A stretch of DNA of 64,000 nt from Gekko japonicus (taxonomy: Eukaryota): NCBI RefSeq assembly GCF_001447785.1, contig NW_015167096.1, positions 128,304 through 192,303 on the forward strand, read 5' to 3'. Positions 10,605 through 62,273 of the stretch are shown here, in pieces. The translations under genes and the position numbers were made by a program. Numbering within the stretch: the first letter of the stretch is position 1; each line of letters starts with the position of its first letter. The notes below the pieces were generated by a model. It saw nothing but the letters and a program-made list of their open reading frames with translations, made no database searches and was not told the origin of the DNA.

Positions 10605-12659
10605 CTGCAGGAAATGGGGATCTGAATTTAGACACCACTTCCAGTGAGTGATTCCCTACCTATACTCCTCACCCCCCTGCTGATGCTCAGTAGGACAGTG
10701 GAGGAAAAGTGGAGGGGAATGGCACTGCATGAAAAACAAAGCAAGTGGCTAAAAAATGGGAATCTCTAAAAACTCTCTAGAAGCCTCCCTGATCTCTATG
10801 TTTTTTACCACGGAGATTGAGAGGACTCCTAGAACACCATGCGATGCAGTGACATTACTTCTTTTTTCCAGCCATAAATGACATTGTGTGTCTCTGCCCC
10901 TCAGATCCTTCTGGATCAACCCTAGATCTGCATCCAATTTTACCAAACTGCATACCAAAGAAATCCACATTTTCTACCAATGCTACCCAAAGAAATGAAG
11001 AATAGTCAATGAGAAAGAAACCCCCTGGGTATATCAATGCTTGTTCTTGCTGATAAAGGGATTAACCCAGCCAGATTTTTCACTCAATCTTGCCTAGTTC
11101 CCTTCCTTACTACAGCCCCCAGCTGGCATAGCATTGGTCCATGTAGGTCACATGACCCACAGCAATAGACTTTTTTGGTAGTAAAAATAGCCTTTTTTGG
11201 TAGTTCCTTTTTTACCAGCAGAAAAGTAGGTTGGATCAAACTCAATATAGGGAGAGGTGTTTCTGGTTTTCATTATGATTTATTTGGCATTTCTGTACTC
11301 TATGGCTGAACTAGTTTCTTGACAAGGTAGAGGTGGTCCAAGGATCTGCAGCTCAAACTTGTCCTTGATTTTTTAAAAAAGAATAATGATAGAACGCACT
11401 CCTCCCCTGCAAACAATCCATCATTTCAGTTCTTAGCCCAAGAGCCCTATATTAACCCCACTTTAAAAATATGGCCGTCGGGCAAGAAACGATTGTGTTG
11501 AATTGTGCCCCACATTAGCATTTAAGGTGAAGAGAAGATGCCTTTGCTAATTTTATCTTATTCCCTCATTTAAAAAATACACGAAGTTTAAACTTTTTTT
11601 TTCATTTTTTAAAAAAAAGCTATTGCACATATGTCTGCCATTTTGAGTTACTTAACATTGAGGTTCATTTTATACCCTTCGGGGTTATTTTTCTGTTTTA
11701 ATGAAGTAACATTTATGTGGAACCCACCATAATAGACTTCCAGAAGATCCATTTTTTCAGAACATTTAAAGTTTGGAAACCTGTTTGCAGAAATATACTT
11801 TTAAATTTTCTTATTAAAAGGGACATTATATAGATAGATATATTTTATTTGGGCTTTTGATGAAATAATAAATTGGATTTGTGTCGGGGAGGAGAGGAGG
11901 ATAACCCTTCAAGCCCTCAGCTCTCCCCTATTAAGATTTTTTACTTGCAACTTGGCCTCTTTTAAACTCCCATCTCGTGAATACTCACTTCTAATCTGAT
12001 ACCTCAGTGTACATATCTAAACATGATCAGTGACAGTTTTAGCTGCGGGGTGAGGCTTTCTGTGACAGGGGCAGCGAGCTCTGATTGGAGACCATTCATT
12101 GCAAGTGACTTCAGCTGTCTCTTCGACTGACACTTGGCGACTTGAGGAACGAGGAATGACGAAAGCTCTTTGGACAGAAAACTTCCCCTGACAAGAAGGT
12201 GACAGCTCCTTCCACAGCTGGTCTCTGATAAAGCTTTGCACGGGGCCCACACGGTTGCTAATTTAAGGCAGATCGGTAGCTGCAAGCGTGGGGCAAACAA
12301 GTTCTTGTAGGCTTGAAACTCGTTGAGGAGGGATGGCAGCGAGGAGAAGGTTCCCCGGTGGTGCTCTGGGGGGCCCGTAGCATTCTCAGTAGGCCATGTT
12401 TATTTAAAGGCAAGTAAACTGAACCACCAGCAATTCCCGGACCTCATTAAGTCATCGTATGTAGCTGACTCTGGTGTATTTGGTTTATTCAAAGACACTT
12501 CCCCCCCCCTTCTAGGGCCCAAATAGTATAGCAACAGTATCCTTGGCCTTCAGACAGAACTGTCAGAAGTTAGACTGACAAGTGGGAATCGGTCTGGTGG
12601 CTTGTGGCCAGTTTGAGTCAGTACGTCCCATATCAGTGCTATTCAGGGTTGGGGCAGAG

Positions 12660-20195: not shown

Positions 20196-20400
20196 TGCTG
20201 TCAAGTCAAAGCTGATTTATGGTGACCTGGTAGAATTTTCAAGGCAAGATATATTCAGAGGTGGTTTGCCATTGCCTGCATCTGTGTCATGACACCAGTA
20301 TTCCTTGGTGATCTCCCATCCAAATACTAGCCAGGGCTGACCCTGCTTATCTTCAGAGATCTGCTGAGATCAGACTAGCCTAGGCTATTCAGGGTAGGGC
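20196..20400 (-). mobile_element. 5S-derived SINE (5S-Sauria-like)
   Basis: ctcccatccaaatactagccagggctgaccctgcttatcttcagagatctg is the reverse complement of the 5S core; (AAC)n tail. Confidence 0.85.
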
Positions 20401-24240: not shown

Positions 24241-26309
24241 AGTTCCTCCATAATAGTTCAGCAGATTTACCTCTATCATTTCCTTACCTATGGCAGTGGT
24301 GAAGAGAAGTGTGCAATGTGTTGATGACATTGTAAATCCGCCTATGTTTATAAAGAGTGGAGAAAAATCTGACAGGGCTTTCATTTGCAGTAGCATCCTT
24401 ATGCTGAATGTCAAAAGGAGAGATTACCTCAGTGGATGAGCACATGCTTCAAAGGGCCTCGGATAGGAAGGCTGTGAAGAACCTCTGCCTAAGGTCTTGG
24501 AGATCTGGTGGCTGAATAGACTGCTGGGCAGACAATGTAAGGTGTCCTCTTAGACCTCTGGTTTTTTTGTTTACACCCTCACACATCTCTTTACTGTCCC
24601 TTGCACAGAATCTCCAAAACTACCCTAAATAGCCATCTACTTATAATTGTAACACAGGATCAAAACCATCAGTCTCATAACTGGGTATTATTTGCTGTTC
24701 CTGTTGAGCTTTTGGTCTAAACATCATTCCAAACTTTGCAGCTGAATTTGTTTTACTTGCAGCATTGACACAAGTGAAAATTCTGGGCAGATGTCGAATG
24801 GCAGAAATCCTTCACTTGGCAGAGCGTCTGCTGTTTTAATGAGTCAAGAGGAAGGGAGGGGCAGCTTGGCAGAACGGCCATGCCTTGGGTTTCAAAGAAT
24901 CAGATTGTATCAAAATCTTGAATTTCTAACCTATTCCCTGGAGTTGAAAATACTTCCACGGAGTCAAGGAAAGTTCAAGAACGTGCCTTGCACCACTGTG
25001 GTTATAGAAGAAACGCAATGGTATTCGAAACAAAAATGATCCTTGCATTCATTTAGGGACTAGCATACCTGAGAGAAAATGTTGAGGATTTTGTTAGCAA
25101 AGCACACTGACCTTGTTTCTCTTGTCCCTTGAATCAAACCTTGCATTAACATCTACTGGGACCTTAGTGCAGTGGAAGAAAAAGAAGTCGAGACCAAAGA
25201 TTCTTTCCTTTCTCTAGGAAAATTCCGTTATCTTCTTTTTCATATTGCTTCATTCCATATTACAGGCACAGCCTTTGCTTTCCAGGACTTTCAGATATCC
25301 AAATACCTTTGTTTTGTGGTGTTCTTTTTGTTTTGATGTATACATATTGGAAACTTGGTGAATATCAACATTTAATGGTAAGTCTTGATGTTGCCTAAGG
25401 CCTGATGGGGAAAGAAAGACACCTTTTAAGATAAATCTCTCTCTCGCTCTCTTTTTTGCCATTTACACCCATGACATGGAAATGGCCTTTAATAAAACAA
25501 CACAAAATGGCTATGACATTTGAAGATTTACTGGAGGCTCTGGTAACCTGGTAAATCACACAAACAATGAGAGGGGGAGGAGATTTTAAAATGACTTTTA
25601 TTCTTTATTTATATCAAACTTTTCTCCATAATCAGGACCCAAAATAACTTATTGTTCTTCCTCCTCCACTCTGTCTTCACAACAAACACCTTTTGAGGTA
25701 GGTTAGGCTGAGAGATTGTTACAGGCCCAAGGTCACCTGCTGAGATTCCATGGCAGAAGGGGGATTTAAAACAGTTTGTCCCAGGTCCTAGTCCAATCAC
25801 TACTCCATGTCAGCCCTTAAGATGAAATCCAGAACAAAGTACATTTCTGAAGGACTCCAGTATATCGTGTGCATTGTGTGTAGCTGGGTCATTACATATG
25901 TGTATTTGTAACTATTTGTGATGTATTAAAATGATTGTTTTCTTATAACACGGAAGCCTACTTTACTTTAAAACATTTTAGCTGCTGGTAAATTCCATCT
26001 CCCTCTCTGCAAATCAAGACTTAGCACTTAATGTCAGCATTTGCCAAATTTCTGGCAACAACATAGTGCTTACTACTTATCTACGCGACCGCCTCTCCTA
26101 GTATACCCCCAGAAAAGCATTACACTCTGGAGAGAAGAACCTTCTGGTGATCCCTGGCCCAAAAGATATCTGGCTGTCCTCAACCAGAGCCAGGGCCTTT
26201 TCAGCCTTGGTGCTGGAACTCTCTGCCAAATGACATCTGTGCCCTGTGGGACTCGGCACAGTTCCGCAGGGCTGTAAGACAGAGATGTTCTGCCAGGCCT
26301 ATGGTTGAG

Positions 26310-26961
26310 CAAGTCACAAAACCAAAATAGGACCCAAGGTAAGTAGGAAATACCAAAAATCAGCAAATATCTCAAATAATTTTTATATATTTTTGTGTTA
26401 TATTTTTACAATTTATTCACTATATATTATTTATCATATAAGGCTTAATACGTAGAAAGAATCATATATCAAAACATCTAAGTATCATCTCTTAATATAT
26501 CACAAAAGATATTGCACAACCCCTTTATTAATATCAGTACTCCTTAATTATACAAAAGTTTTAAGAGGGAGGACTCCTTTAAGTCTATTTTGAATAAGTG
26601 CTCAGTCTTCCTCCAACAGAAGTCCAGATATCCTCCTGTTTCAGTGTCTTCCTCAGGAAGTTCAACAGATATTTCCAAGCACAAAGTTGCCAAATACCGA
26701 AATATTTATCCAAATTTTTTCAATGAACACTGCAAAAAGTCTCTCTTAGTGAGCTCAAAGCTTCCTCCAAAGTGAAAAGGACGTGCTTTTCTTATATTTT
26801 GTGATATATTAAGAGACGATACTTAGATGTTTTCATATATGATTCTTTCGATGTATTAAGGCTTATATGATAAATAATATATGGTGAATAAATTGTAAAA
26901 ATATAAAACAAAAATATATTTTAAAAATTGTATGTAGCACGGTATTTGCTGATTTTTGGGA
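26310..26961. mobile_element. AT-rich fold-back Penelope-like insertion
   Basis: ~160-bp inverted arms (26353-26511 vs 26793-26959); 15-bp TSD aggcctatggttgag (26295-26309, 26962-26976). Confidence 0.8.
26611..26660 (-). ncRNA. Putative type I hammerhead ribozyme
   Basis: Minus strand: CUUC CUGAGGA AG-ACA-CU GAAAC AGGAG GAUAUCUGGA CUUCU GUU GGAG; complete core, 7-bp stem III, 4-bp stem I, but only a 2-bp stem II. Confidence 0.55.
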
Positions 26962-27107
26962 AGGCCTATGGTTGAGGACAGCAACGGTTTCCATCATGCC
27001 TGGCCTCTCCCCTTTTTCTGCCCTCCTTTTGCCCTCCCTTTTGGGGTAAGGATAGGAATTGGTCTTTAAGTGCCATCTTTAAATAGCTACTGGATTTTTG
27101 ATAATTG

Positions 27108-38726: not shown

Positions 38727-38930
38727 TGTCATCAAATCACAGCCAGCTTGGTGACCCCATAGGGTTTTCAAGGCAAGAGATGTTCAGAGATGATTTACCA
38801 TTGCCTGGCTCTGTGTCGTGACCCTGGACTTCCATGGTGGTCTCCCATCCAAGTATGAACCAGGGCTGACCTGGTCAGCTTCCAAGATCTGATGAGATAG
38901 AGCTATCCTGGATTGTCCGGGTCAGGGCAC
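38727..38930 (-). mobile_element. 5S-derived SINE
   Basis: ggtggtctcccatccaagta...agatctgatgagat. Confidence 0.8.
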
Positions 38931-51250: not shown

Positions 51251-51453
51251 CAATCGATCAAGATGGGTAGCTGTGTTAATCTGTCTGTAGCAGTAGAAAA
51301 GAGCAAGAGTTCAGTAGCATCTTAAAGACTAACACAATTTGTGACCGGGCATGAGCTTTATTTTTTCAGATCTGAAGAAGTGAGCAGTGACTCAAGAAAG
51401 TTCATACCCGGCCACAAATTTTGTTAGTCTTTAAGGTGCTACTGGACTCTTGC
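51251..51453. mobile_element. Fold-back Penelope-like pLTR insertion with a degenerate hammerhead
   Basis: Inverted arms centred on ttcagatctgaa (51365-51376); CTGAAGA (51372-51378), gtgag..ctca stem, GAAAG TTC; 12-bp TSD tcttagaaatgg (51239-51250, 51454-51465). Confidence 0.85.
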
Positions 51454-54197
51454 TCTTAGAAATGGTGATAAGTCTCAGCAATAAATCACTTAATGGTTTC
51501 TTTGAAATCAGGAAGAAAACAGGCAATCAGGTAACCTATCAGTGAACTCTGTTATACAACATGTTCTGGGCTTTCCGGAGTGACAGCCAGTTGCTATCAG
51601 AAAGAGAACAGCAAACTTTAATGACTCCATTCTGGGCAGCAAAATGGGGTCACTGTCAGGCAAGGAAGGGTTTTGTGCCCTCCCCAAATATGGAAAGGAA
51701 TATTAGTTTCTAAATTTAATTACCTTCTTGAAAGACTCTCGTGAGAATTGAGCATGATGCTAGGCCTTCATGAAGCATTGAATGCTGAGGGTAGCTGAAG
51801 AAGAAAAATGAATTTGTTCAAGTCACAGTTTATGAGATTTGAGCATCCCCCCCCCCCCGGGTATACAGAAACACCTAGCTTGTCTGAAGGGTTTTCCACA
51901 TGTTCAACTTACTCCTGATTTTCTTGTCAGTTGATCCACAAGTACTGGAATTGTTTTGGGCATGGTTCTTCCACACATCTGCCCACCCTCTGCATTTTCA
52001 CAGCTGTGAAATCAGGGTGTTTTTTTCTGCACTCACTTAAATAATCAGAATTTTCAAGGGAGGGTGTTGCCATCATTGGTGGCATCACAACCCCCCCCTT
52101 TAGTTTTTGTGCATGTTTATATCAATATATTGATACCATGGGTGCACTTTTTTAAAATAAAAGGCACTGTACTGATATATCAATCTACTGCTATAATGAT
52201 AGCTGTTGTGGAGATATGTCGTTTTCTTTATATCTCCATGAGGGAGGAGGCTGGAGACTTACTTAAAAAAAATGAAAGATGGGAATTAAGAGAACCTGCT
52301 TGACCTATCATTATAGTATATCAATATTGTAGTGCCCTAAAAACAAAATACTTGTCTTCGATATTTTTGTTGGGGGGGGGGGGGGCTTGACAACAAAAGT
52401 CCAATAATCTAAAAGTGGCCTGGAGATAGACAGCAGTGTGTGGGACAAAGAAACCTGATAGAAACATTACACACAAGGAAGAAGGTGACTCAAAGGGCGA
52501 TTCTGCATCTAGCATTCGCTCCACATTTTCTCAACTGGGAGAAAAAGGTGCAGCTCAATACCACATTCAGGTATCTTGGGGCAATGCTGTATTGATTGTA
52601 AAGTCACCCCTGAATAGCCATAAATCTATGCAGAAGGTACGATAAAATCCGATGATCAAAGAAAGTGAAAGCAGCATGCAATGCAGAGGGGAACTTCTGT
52701 TCCAATGTGGGTTTCGTAAAACAATGGAGAGAAAAGCCAATGCAGAATCACCCAAAATCAGCTTCCAGAAAAAGATCTGAACAAAAGTGGTCTTAAAAAA
52801 AAAAAACCCAGGAAAAAATGGAGGGGAAAACATAAACAGAAGTGAAAAACAAAGTCACAAAAATGTGTGTGGAAATCAGGGGATAAACTGAAGCAGTATG
52901 GGGCCAGAATGATCTCATGAGAGTAGACCTAAAACCGGTAAAACTAGTTGCAGCTTAAACATATCCTGAATTCCCCTAGTGACTACTACAGCTCCAAAGA
53001 TAATTGTATGAATCAGCACTGACATCGGTGTTATACTCTTTTATCACACAGGCCTGAACGCATACCTGACGGGCAGCTGTCTGTGCCACTGACGGGAATA
53101 CGGTAGTACATGCTTGTTACAGTGTTCTTCCAGGACGGTTGAACTGGCTGGAAACAACCTTTCGGTGCTCATAATGGTGGGTATCTCTCTTCAGATCCAT
53201 TTGTTCACAGCTAGTTGTGCACACCAAAAGCTGAGTCAGGGCAATTGTTACCCAGAAAGTGGAATTTGGCAACGACAATACAGCTGGCTCCATTTCTGTA
53301 ACATTAAACACACACACACACACAAAACACTGCCACAGTATTTCATAATGAAGATGTGTCTCTTTTATTAGCATAACTGGCTCTTTGATTTGTTTCAGGT
53401 TTTATGATGTTTAGACAAACGGATTTGGACAGTTAAAATCCCACTTAGGCTTGATACATTGTATCTGCCTGACACACAATAACATTGATTTATTAAGATG
53501 TGATGAATCTCTAATTAGATTTTGGCATGAGCGTCGCAGTCAGGAAAAGTTCCTGTAAGTGCTCCATTGGAAGGTACTGTGTTATGAAGGCCAATTTTAA
53601 TTAAGCAGTGCCCCCTCCAAAGGGCTGTAAGCAGAGGGCACTTGGGCCTCCCCCATTGCCCTGTGGCACAGCAGACTTCTCAAGCATACTTTTCCATAGC
53701 ATGATTTATAGGACATCTTTAAGAAGAAGTCATTGTAACTTGCCCGAAAACTGTAAGGTGGATACCTGATCACAAGAACACATCAGCAGGCTTTTTAGTG
53801 GGTAAATGGATGCTGTTGCAGAAGAGTAGAGCTTCAGGCTGAAAAATGAGCTTATGATTGCTCCCTCGCCTTAAGTGTTCTGTAAATTTCTACTTTTATG
53901 ACCCTCTTATTGTAAAAGCCGAATAAAGGAGACCATTAAATAAATAGAAAGAACTTGTTTTCAATCAAGTGTAACTGAAGCCGATTTCAGTGCAGATCCA
54001 GAACTGAAATGAATGGATTTGAGATGATTTTGAATTTTTCATCCCTGCTGTTTCAAGCTGAAGGGAGGAGGGAAATCAGCTTTGCTTTTTGCTCGTGCAA
54101 ACTGGATACGTTATTCTTTAGTTTCGCACCACTTTTTGTTTCCTCGTATCAAATGTTCTTATAAAATGTATGCATTTTTCAGCTTTTTGCATCCAGA

Positions 54198-54400
54198 TTG
54201 GATGACCCAGGCTAACCCAATCTCATCAGATCTTGGAAACTAAGCCAGGTCAGTCCTAGTTTATACTTGGATGGGAGACCACCAGGGAAGTCCAGGGTCA
54301 CTATCCTGAGGCAGAGAATGGCAATGTATCTCTGGTAGCTTGTCTTGAAAACCCTACAGGGTCACCATAAGTTGGTGGCAACTTGGCAGCACTTTCCACC
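54198..54400 (+). mobile_element. 5S-derived SINE
   Basis: aatctcatcagatcttggaaactaagc...tacttggatgggagaccacc. Confidence 0.8.
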
Positions 54401-54515: not shown

Positions 54516-54722
54516 GCTGTCAGGTTGCAGCTGACTTATGGTGACCCTGTAGGGTTTTCAAGGCGAGAGATATTCAGAGGTGGTTTGCCATTGCCTGCCT
54601 CTGCGTAGACTGACCCCGGTGCTCCTCAGTGGTCTCCCATCCAAATACTGACAAGGGTAGAACCTGCTTAGCTTCTGAGACCTGATGATATCAGGCTAGC
54701 CTGGGCAACCCAGGGCAGGGTC
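54516..54722 (-). mobile_element. 5S-derived SINE
   Basis: gtggtctcccatccaaatact...cctgcttagcttctgaga. Confidence 0.85.
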
Positions 54723-59419: not shown

Positions 59420-59487
59420 TCAGAGATACTAGGGGTTGAACCTGGGATCTTCTGCATGCAAAGTAGATGCTCCACCACTGAGCTACA
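59420..59487 (-). mobile_element. tRNA-derived SINE head (Squam2-like)
   Basis: ggggttgaacctgggatcttctgcatgcaaagtagatgctccaccactgagcta; similar at ~36670-36720 and ~9995-10045. Confidence 0.65.
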
Positions 59488-59640
59488 TTTCCTTCTCAAA
59501 TGTTGCTTTCTGTAAAATTTGACCATGGTTCTTGCTCAAACCCAATGAGAGTAAAGATTATGCTAGATATCCCCAGGGATATGTTCTAAATATTAATGCC
59601 TCAGAACAGAACTAAATTGATCCTCAGCTTGTTTATCTAG

Positions 59641-61029: not shown

Positions 61030-61232
61030 TGCCATCAAAGTGCAGCCAACCAATGGTGATCCTCAGGGTTTAAAGGCATGAGATGTTCAGAGTTGGTTCA
61101 CCATTGCCTGCCTTCATGTAGTGACCCTGGACTTCCTTGTTGGCCTCCCATCCAAATAATAACCAGGGCGGGCCCTACTTAGCTTCTGAGATCTGACAAG
61201 ATAAGGCTAACCTGGACCATCCAGGTCAGGGC
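61030..61232 (-). mobile_element. 5S-derived SINE
   Basis: ctcccatccaaataataaccaggg...cttagcttctgagatctgacaagat. Confidence 0.8.
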
Positions 61233-61664: not shown

Positions 61665-62273
61665 GGGGAGTTTCACATTACCCAGTTTCACCCGGTTTCA
61701 AGACGGCAATCATCTGTTTTGAAATGAACCGGTACAGGGCTGCCATTTCACACAGGGCTTGCCCCTACCGGAAATGAGCCGGATCAGAAGCGGTTTGGCA
61801 TTTCAGACTTGCACTGCTTTGTTTTCCCGCCATTTACCTCCCGCGCGGGTGATCGGTTTTTTTAAAAAAACGTTCGATTTATAGCGCTATAGCAGTATAA
61901 CAAAACACTACATGCATTCCAATGGGAGGCAATTCCGTTATACCGTTATAGCATTATAGCGCTATAGCGCTATACCGCTATAAATCGAACGTTCAAAAAA
62001 AAAAACCAGCCGGAGATCGCCCGCGCAGGTGAAAAAAGGCAGGAAAAAAGCATATCGGAACCGGGAGAGGGCACTGGAGACCACTTGGAAGTGGATGACA
62101 GGTAAAACGCTTCAGTCCCGGTTCCTAAACAGGACTGAAGCGTTTGTGTATGAAATGGCAAATTGATTCCGGAAGGGAACCGGTTCTCAAATGGGTTCTG
62201 TCTGAAATGACAGACCAGAACCTGTTTGAGAACCAGTTCCCTTCCGGAATCTATCTCCTGTCTGAAATTCCCC
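61665..62273. mobile_element. PIF/Harbinger-like MITE with internal palindromes
   Basis: TIR ggggagtttcaca / tctgaaattcccc; 3-bp TSD atg; internal inverted repeat aacgttcgatttatagcg / cgctataaatcgaacgtt. Confidence 0.85.

Follow-up and report, generated by a model that had tools for sequence, protein, structure and literature searches.

Intron-less pseudo-LTR copies of a Penelope-like element in Gekko japonicus and the probable origin of their inverted arms

How does a short AT-rich sequence come to combine long inverted arms, a perfect target-site duplication and a hammerhead ribozyme motif in the spacer between the arms? The question is raised by a 652-bp locus (26,310-26,961) in the window, by which we mean the whole stretch of 64,000 nucleotides of Gekko japonicus DNA analysed here. 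The first-pass annotation described it as a fold-back element and proposed an uncharacterised Penelope-derived or retrozyme-like family. The 652 bp are no fixed unit. The unit is the ~496-bp pseudo-LTR (pLTR) of a Penelope-like element (PLE) of the RT/GIY-YIG type, and the locus contains two copies of it, arranged as follows.

26295..26309, no strand: left target-site duplication (TSD, 15 bp), sitting in the 3' end of an older LINE-like repeat
26310..26313, no strand: filler of 4 nt, the gap between TSD and 3' end
26314..26352, minus strand: tail, family positions ~458-496, present only at the left end; it stops at the distal putative RT start site
26314..26784, minus strand: direct copy, a spliced pLTR, family positions 2-496
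26353..26511, minus strand: within the direct copy, the portion pairing with the inverted arm
26611..26660, minus strand: type I hammerhead motif
26696..26697, minus strand: exon-exon junction, where an 88-nt GT-AG intron sits in ORF-linked copies
26697..26784, minus strand: exon 1; its start at ~26784 is the 5' end common to short copies and the putative transcription start
26775..26792, no strand: junction of the two copies; the 5' start lies within a short imperfect palindrome
26793..26959, plus strand: inverted arm, the second, truncated copy, family positions 274-457; it has no tail and ends at the proximal putative RT start site
26960..26961, no strand: filler of 2 nt
26962..26976, no strand: right copy of the TSD

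The layout reported earlier holds for this copy. The 15-bp TSD (AGGCCTATGGTTGAG) is exact at both 26295-26309 and 26962-26976, and alignment of the arms 26353-26511 and 26793-26959 over 167 columns gives 88% identity (94% across a 127-nt core). When both window strands were scanned strictly for hammerheads, the minus-strand motif was the sole match. The element is also unlike the rest of the window, as BLAST against it returned the element alone. The older repeat around the insertion, which we take to be L2, provides an empty site: four alignments from other copies of this host repeat cross the joined junction with the 15-mer region present once (four of 16 host-repeat matches span the junction, and two of these four are one locus). 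Rfam gave no match at the element coordinates at E<=1. Elsewhere in the window lie heads of 5S-rRNA-derived repeats (20284-20391, 38813-38929, 54196-54306, 54605-54712 and 61124-61220), a tRNA-like sequence (59421-59492) and two further fold-backs (51298-51458 and 61852-62008) with only sub-threshold matches to miRNA families. Other hammerhead-core-like motifs at 53194 (-), 44717 (-) and 32316 (+) are probably the other Penelope-type families mentioned in the first-pass annotation. The single window copy is most likely inert; it is the family that is informative.

We call the family of the window copy family A. In the 2.49 Gb of genome searched, a 25-nt hammerhead pattern has 131 exact matches and its reversed control none, so at least 131 copies exist. 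A DNA search with the element gave 921 candidates, the best 40 of which were scored. The family-A set consists of 113 loci, with 7 re-fetched ones removed; it is a non-random sample, 36 loci having been chosen for resemblance to the window copy, and it includes a few possible segmental duplicates (L010/L099 and L008/L027 share flanks). On the hammerhead strand the unit of ~496 bp shows a median substitution divergence of 3.4% (145 segments). Its 5' start is shared, as 100 of 218 segments begin at family position 14 or lower, and its 3' ends form two peaks, at 455-459 and 495-496, which amounts to an optional tail of ~40 nt. Downstream of the tails, sequence is shared only via host SINEs or duplicate loci. 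Two copies lying 3.2 kb apart in L061 are independent insertions with no ORF between them.

The inverted arm behaves differently. Its length varies from ~20 to ~280 bp between copies, and 42 of the 106 scored copies have none; the fold-back is not the form of the family, and the arm is a product of each insertion. This bears on another reading, that of a MITE, a DNA transposon of the fold-back kind whose terminal inverted repeats enclose a hammerhead-like motif by chance. The window copy alone would suit it, with long inverted arms, AT-richness, no ORF and a TSD, yet the unit is a PLE pLTR, and a spliced one. We give this reading practically no credence and rejected it, since fixed terminal inverted repeats are lacking, the arms being variable and the unit ORF-linked. 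Compared arm against arm, the copies share 27 derived sites in 3932 nt, 4.6 times the control, so that the arms come from a common source lineage; the comparison fits one RNA or two. The inner end of the arm recurs at family positions 274-280 with differing junction letters in six loci (L001, L003, L004, L005, L047 and L115), five of which were chosen by likeness to the window copy.

The suspected Penelope origin was borne out by a linked ORF. The parent was found by protein search of the family flanks with a PLE ORF from the same genome as query. In locus L102 the C-terminus of an endonuclease lies 150 nt upstream of the unit on the same strand, and a DNA search with this upstream sequence gave 64 candidates, of which the best 40 were scored, 30 fetched and 26 aligned into the pLTR. 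In L102 and these 26 loci, the end of the parental RT/GIY-YIG ORF is followed by ~150 nt and the same pLTR. Parent stretches contain RT, a CxxCxxC linker and the endonuclease (EN), with tblastn identities of 33-50% to a 763-aa ORF whose RVT_1 and GIY-YIG domains are above the Pfam cut-off; of the parent's own pieces, the endonuclease fragment has no match in Pfam and the RT fragment stays below the cut-off. In the description of PMC8557442, a CX2-5CxxC motif between RT and EN is a criterion of Neptune, with Nematis likewise having a linker motif, and by this criterion the parent would fit the Neptune clade. None of the 9 and 11 matches to the 5' region of the ORF, one of which hits an N stretch, joins a 5' pLTR to the ORF start, so we infer both the start site and the run-on of the tail into the ORF. 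Forty loci around GIY-YIG matches have no real DNA likeness to the pLTR unit. In L257/L264, L265 and L258 the RT frame is partly shared with a coiled-coil-like frame that lies upstream of it; a T-run is located close to the overlapping stretch, and a programmed frameshift is possible there. Another PLE family (L141-L143), with open frames of 763-785 codons and a hammerhead-like motif just upstream, is unrelated in DNA to the window's family.

Short and ORF-linked copies differ by an intron. ORF-linked pLTRs carry 88 extra nt, from GT to AG, exactly at the window junction 26697/26696. The extra sequence is kept in 25 of 26 segments with upstream sequence and in 0 of 44 that are anchored at the start (Fisher p 4e-18, L102 counted once). 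From the window copy it is exactly absent, and with it the retained intron that serves as a criterion of EN+ PLEs. The 30 loci found via upstream sequence gave 24 segments with the intron and none without (one reads otherwise and the rest do not span the site), and the 84 loci found via the hammerhead pattern gave 69 segments without it and four with it. Among these 69, 44 have the start motif without upstream sequence, 24 have no readable start, and one (L043) is a spliced copy with 28 nt upstream of the start. The related family B is spliced in all 30 segments. Families C and D, two PLE families unrelated to A that were detected with a looser hammerhead pattern, have GT-AG introns of their own and divide in like manner: one of 66 nt in C (of 14 segments, three with it and 10 exactly without) and one of 87 nt in D (three with and 14 exactly without, of 20). 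The split by upstream sequence is not absolute because of L043 and three spliced family-C copies that also have upstream sequence.

Could the 88 nt be simply an insertion in ORF-linked copies, or an ordinary deletion in short ones, without any splicing? Three unstranded-like RNA runs of one study contain reads from many copies, without pile-up of read starts or ends; fifteen of the reads skip these 88 nt, but they could themselves derive from intron-less genomic copies, which leaves some room for such an event. Exact GT-AG ends in the sense strand of the element, in subfamilies A and B and in different sequences in C and D, speak against it. So does a tree of exon 2 with 76 rows (26 out of 76 spliced copies from family A, 29 spliced ones from B and all 22 intron-bearing, one A row being drawn twice), on which the intron state changes nine times, at least four of them forced, with rough support values. 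We therefore regard a mere insertion or deletion as highly improbable. That four lineages within a single genome contain exactly spliced copies points, as far as genomic copies can tell, to the sense strand as template. The literature searched contains no report of exactly spliced genomic copies of PLEs, with the reservation that earlier reviews, the first paper on the intron, entries in Repbase and supplements may bear on the matter.

The outer ends of the insertions tell how the copies were joined to the host DNA. Geometry was scored at 106 family-A loci, 7 having been dropped for N or short flanks, and a copy was called double-ended if the 3' end of the element lies at both outer edges. In the window copy the outer ends fall at the two preferred 3' ends, and the 15-bp TSD encloses both the direct and the inverted copy. 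A TSD of at least 10 bp accompanies 23 of 29 double-ended copies of family A (six are without), compared with 4/42 single-ended and 7/35 other copies; none of 1500 mismatched flank pairs gave 10 bp or more. For family B, with 27 of 30 loci scored and a null of 1.1%, the corresponding figures are 7/8 double-ended versus 2/16 single-ended. The tail occurs on exactly one side in 28/29 (A; p 1e-7 versus 50:50) and 8/8 (B) of these copies, at a cut-off set after both 3' peaks were seen. The median TSD is 14 bp (30 TSDs). GCAG, a motif noticed post hoc, stands at most 8 nt outside the TSD at 21/60 half-sites versus a background of 4.3%; GCA is present on both sides of the TSD in 8/30, and 14/58 single-ended copies have GCAG at a distance of 12-19 nt beyond the 3' end. 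Taken together, the TSDs of double-ended copies, the one-sided tail and the nearby GCAG half-sites fit priming from both target strands. No report of counted one-tail and TSD rules is contained in the literature searched, where supplements and older reviews may again be relevant. Independent insertions at the same position were also seen in two host SINE-like repeats (L016, L183 and L202; L083, L091 and L223), which is in line with a target preference.

We consider it quite probable that such an insertion consists of an intron-less pLTR copy and a shorter inverted copy because the enzyme of the element reverse-transcribes the 5' end of the element's spliced sense message, starting from both strands of one staggered cut. 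A possible course of events is this. Transcription would begin at about family position 1 and the 88-nt intron would be spliced. The endonuclease, probably as a dimer near GCAG half-sites, would nick both strands ~14 nt apart. One 3'-OH would then prime at ~496, the distal internal start, which yields the tail, and the other at ~457, the proximal one. One cDNA would reach the 5' end while the other would stop early, followed by head-to-head joining, and fill-in would generate the TSD. A single two-strand reaction would thus account at once for the inverted arm, for the tail on one side only and for the TSD. Internal priming near the 5' end of the spliced message would mass-produce processed solo pLTRs, and starts in the downstream, read-through pLTR would yield the ORF-bearing copies, in which the intron is nearly always kept. 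Parts of this scheme have a biochemical counterpart: a lizard PLE protein is described as nicking and extending both strands, with two internal starts defining the tail (PMC11167929).

The inverted arm has also been explained in another way. In a snap-back model, proposed for rotifer Penelope elements (PMC3846280), the arm would arise by self-priming of the cDNA or from an antisense template, and the TSD by ordinary single-ended integration. Many inner junctions, that of the window copy included, contain short palindromes and short inverted pieces of the 5' end, which fit such a model. A GT-AG intron of the sense strand cannot, however, be lost from an antisense template. Snap-back alone also predicts neither outer ends at both 3' peaks, one tailed and the other not, nor TSDs that accompany double-ended copies. 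As an account of the whole insertion it appears unlikely to us, and it may form the inner junction only. In one insertion of a different make-up (L079:1187-2162), the inverted piece keeps the intron and is fused to part of an ORF, and it is joined to a direct piece starting at the 5' end; two templates, or a jump between templates, may lie behind it.

Two-strand priming on a spliced sense message, as we prefer it, leaves the hammerhead to be explained. On the minus strand of the window copy, the motif comprises the CUGAGGA core (26656-26650), GAAA (26642-26639) and a GUU site with U17 at 26615; stem I has 4 bp (26660-26657/26614-26611), stem II 2 bp with a 3-nt loop, and stem III 7 bp running to 26616, with the predicted cut after 26615. 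The 7-bp stem III was thus correctly noted for this copy, but it is copy-specific, as it needs a C>T change found in 3/126 segments; the family consensus has 4-5 bp and a bulged extension. The CUGANGA/GAAA core is intact in the consensus of both A and B (conservation at positions 129-153 being inflated by pattern ascertainment), and stem I of the consensus has four Watson-Crick pairs. Between A and B the hammerhead region is 61/69 identical (88%) versus 325/433 elsewhere (75%, p 0.014), and the tail is conserved like it (36/40). Changes between A and B include a one-sided one of G-U to A-U in stem III and others in loop II. The families beyond A and B were found by a pattern fixing part of stems II-III.

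The GTTG context of the cleavage site had been taken for CpG decay of GTCG, with GUC as the ancestral site. The dinucleotide in question is TG in 113/120 segments, CG in 5 and CA in 0, whereas six true CpGs stay CG in 50-74% and read CA in 7-24%, so the source had GUU already. Family B has GTT in 28/30, and intron-bearing copies have GTT in 15/22 and GTC in 0. It is still conceivable that C>T took place far earlier, in the master lineage, since family D is mostly GUC. GUU is cleaved at a lower rate than GUC. It fits the NUH triplet and is among the cleavable sites listed in PMC3138052.

The expectation that the ribozyme folds as a monomer found no support in the window copy, in which a second C>T (4/126) creates a competing hairpin over the core and the folding model gives stem I a probability of 0. 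Locally, the sequence has no extra stability over shuffles (z -0.37 and -1.64 for stretches of 81 and 56 nt). The hammerhead form stays at P <= 0.001 in every context submitted to thermodynamic folding, a weak test, as the model does not include tertiary contacts. Among 105 internal segment starts, two fall at the cleavage site versus 1.8 expected, and this lack of excess argues that the templates were uncut. With its GUU site and 2-bp stem II, the motif is likely to be slow or protein-dependent, and we picture the hammerhead as a passenger on an uncut template. Hammerhead cleavage of a lizard PLE is described as unneeded, and as protein-assisted (PMC11167929).

These observations also concern the retrozyme-like character suggested at first. 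In its fuller form, the idea is a self-propagating non-autonomous family (retrozyme- or SINE-like) that goes back to one intron-less pLTR founder and spreads through hammerhead-cut or circular RNA. The excess of short copies over ORF-linked ones (the 69 against four segments at the 84 pattern-derived loci) would be expected of it, and retrozymes are reported to derive from pLTRs (bioRxiv 10.64898/2026.07.22.740005). A 49-bp tandem array of the hammerhead segment in L062 can be added in its favour. No head-to-tail unit junction is found in 113 loci, though, and with neither tandem units nor a footprint of cleaved templates the family is not a retrozyme. Spliced and unspliced rows interleave on the exon-2 tree (in one subfamily they are identical), at odds with a single founder, and no back-joint of a circular RNA is listed among the reads of the three shallowly read RNA runs of one study. 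Such a family is largely refuted already, and we hold it to be very unlikely. The L062 array itself (G000:C6942:~11700-12160) has ~9 tandem copies of a 49-bp segment with the hammerhead core, and a 7-nt direct repeat marks its borders; its units have a disrupted stem I, and some have GUC. Slippage is likelier here than a retrozyme, and a tandem-repeat pipeline could miscall the array.

What do these copies say about PLEs in general? Whether introns are kept because the template is antisense or because it is unspliced sense RNA is named as an open question in PMC3846280, and PMC8557442 calls the significance of retained introns unknown. We lean, with less assurance than for the single insertion, towards the view that PLEs copy sense RNA, that intron retention depends on position, and that a dimeric endonuclease-RT acts at dyad GCAG sites with a ~14-nt stagger and a different RNA start for each strand. 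With spliced copies, the question of the template becomes a matter of counting in any genome rich in PLEs. For the in vitro system that already exists (PMC11167929), concrete predictions follow from the one-tail and TSD rules and from the target dyad. When such genomes are annotated, processed pLTRs may underlie many calls of the "MITE-like" or "monomer retrozyme" sort.

Several known systems resemble the family in part. Non-LTR retrozymes, as presented in bioRxiv 10.64898/2026.07.22.740005, are likewise non-coding, pLTR-derived and equipped with a type I hammerhead. Here, by contrast, there is no tandem and no unit junction at the cleavage site, and the copies are dispersed with two-ended insertion marks. 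The hammerheads of PLEs described in PMC4209133 are also of type I, lie in the pLTR and have a short stem I and an intact core, and a long stem III is known from fungal and protist PLEs. Ours differs from them by its 2-bp stem II, by a stem III of 4-5 bp with a bulged extension, and by the GUU site, which is kept across two subfamilies ~25% diverged.

Penelope of Drosophila virilis (as described in PMC2377424 and PMC4209133) has a 5'-UTR intron in the pLTR just past the start, of 75 nt versus 88 here, with the hammerhead downstream of it. It reportedly keeps this intron in transposition, whereas most copies of the gecko family are without it and those that have it are linked to the ORF; the end of the intron lies at stem I in D. 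virilis and ~35-40 nt ahead of it here. Poseidon of Anolis carolinensis (PAc), in the account of PMC11167929, shares two 3' ends ~40 nt apart, an uncut template and an implied priming on both strands. Our family, known from genomic copies alone, has a Neptune-type linker, starts ~330-370 nt past the hammerhead core and GCAG target flanks instead of an ATT preference.

The closest likeness is found in EN+ PLEs with an inverted pLTR, such as Pen2a_Av (PMC3846280; scheme in PMC8557442). According to these descriptions, they too have an inverted 5'-truncated copy beside a direct pLTR, a tail of 30-40 bp at one end, a TSD round the insert and a hammerhead in the pLTR. The window family differs from them by having no ORF and by a spliced unit with a fixed 5' start, and its TSDs have a median of 14 bp compared with 8-10 bp in the rotifer cases (PMC3846280). 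Inverted pLTR, one-sided tail and TSD are thus already known from such descriptions; what is added here is their counting over dozens of copies.
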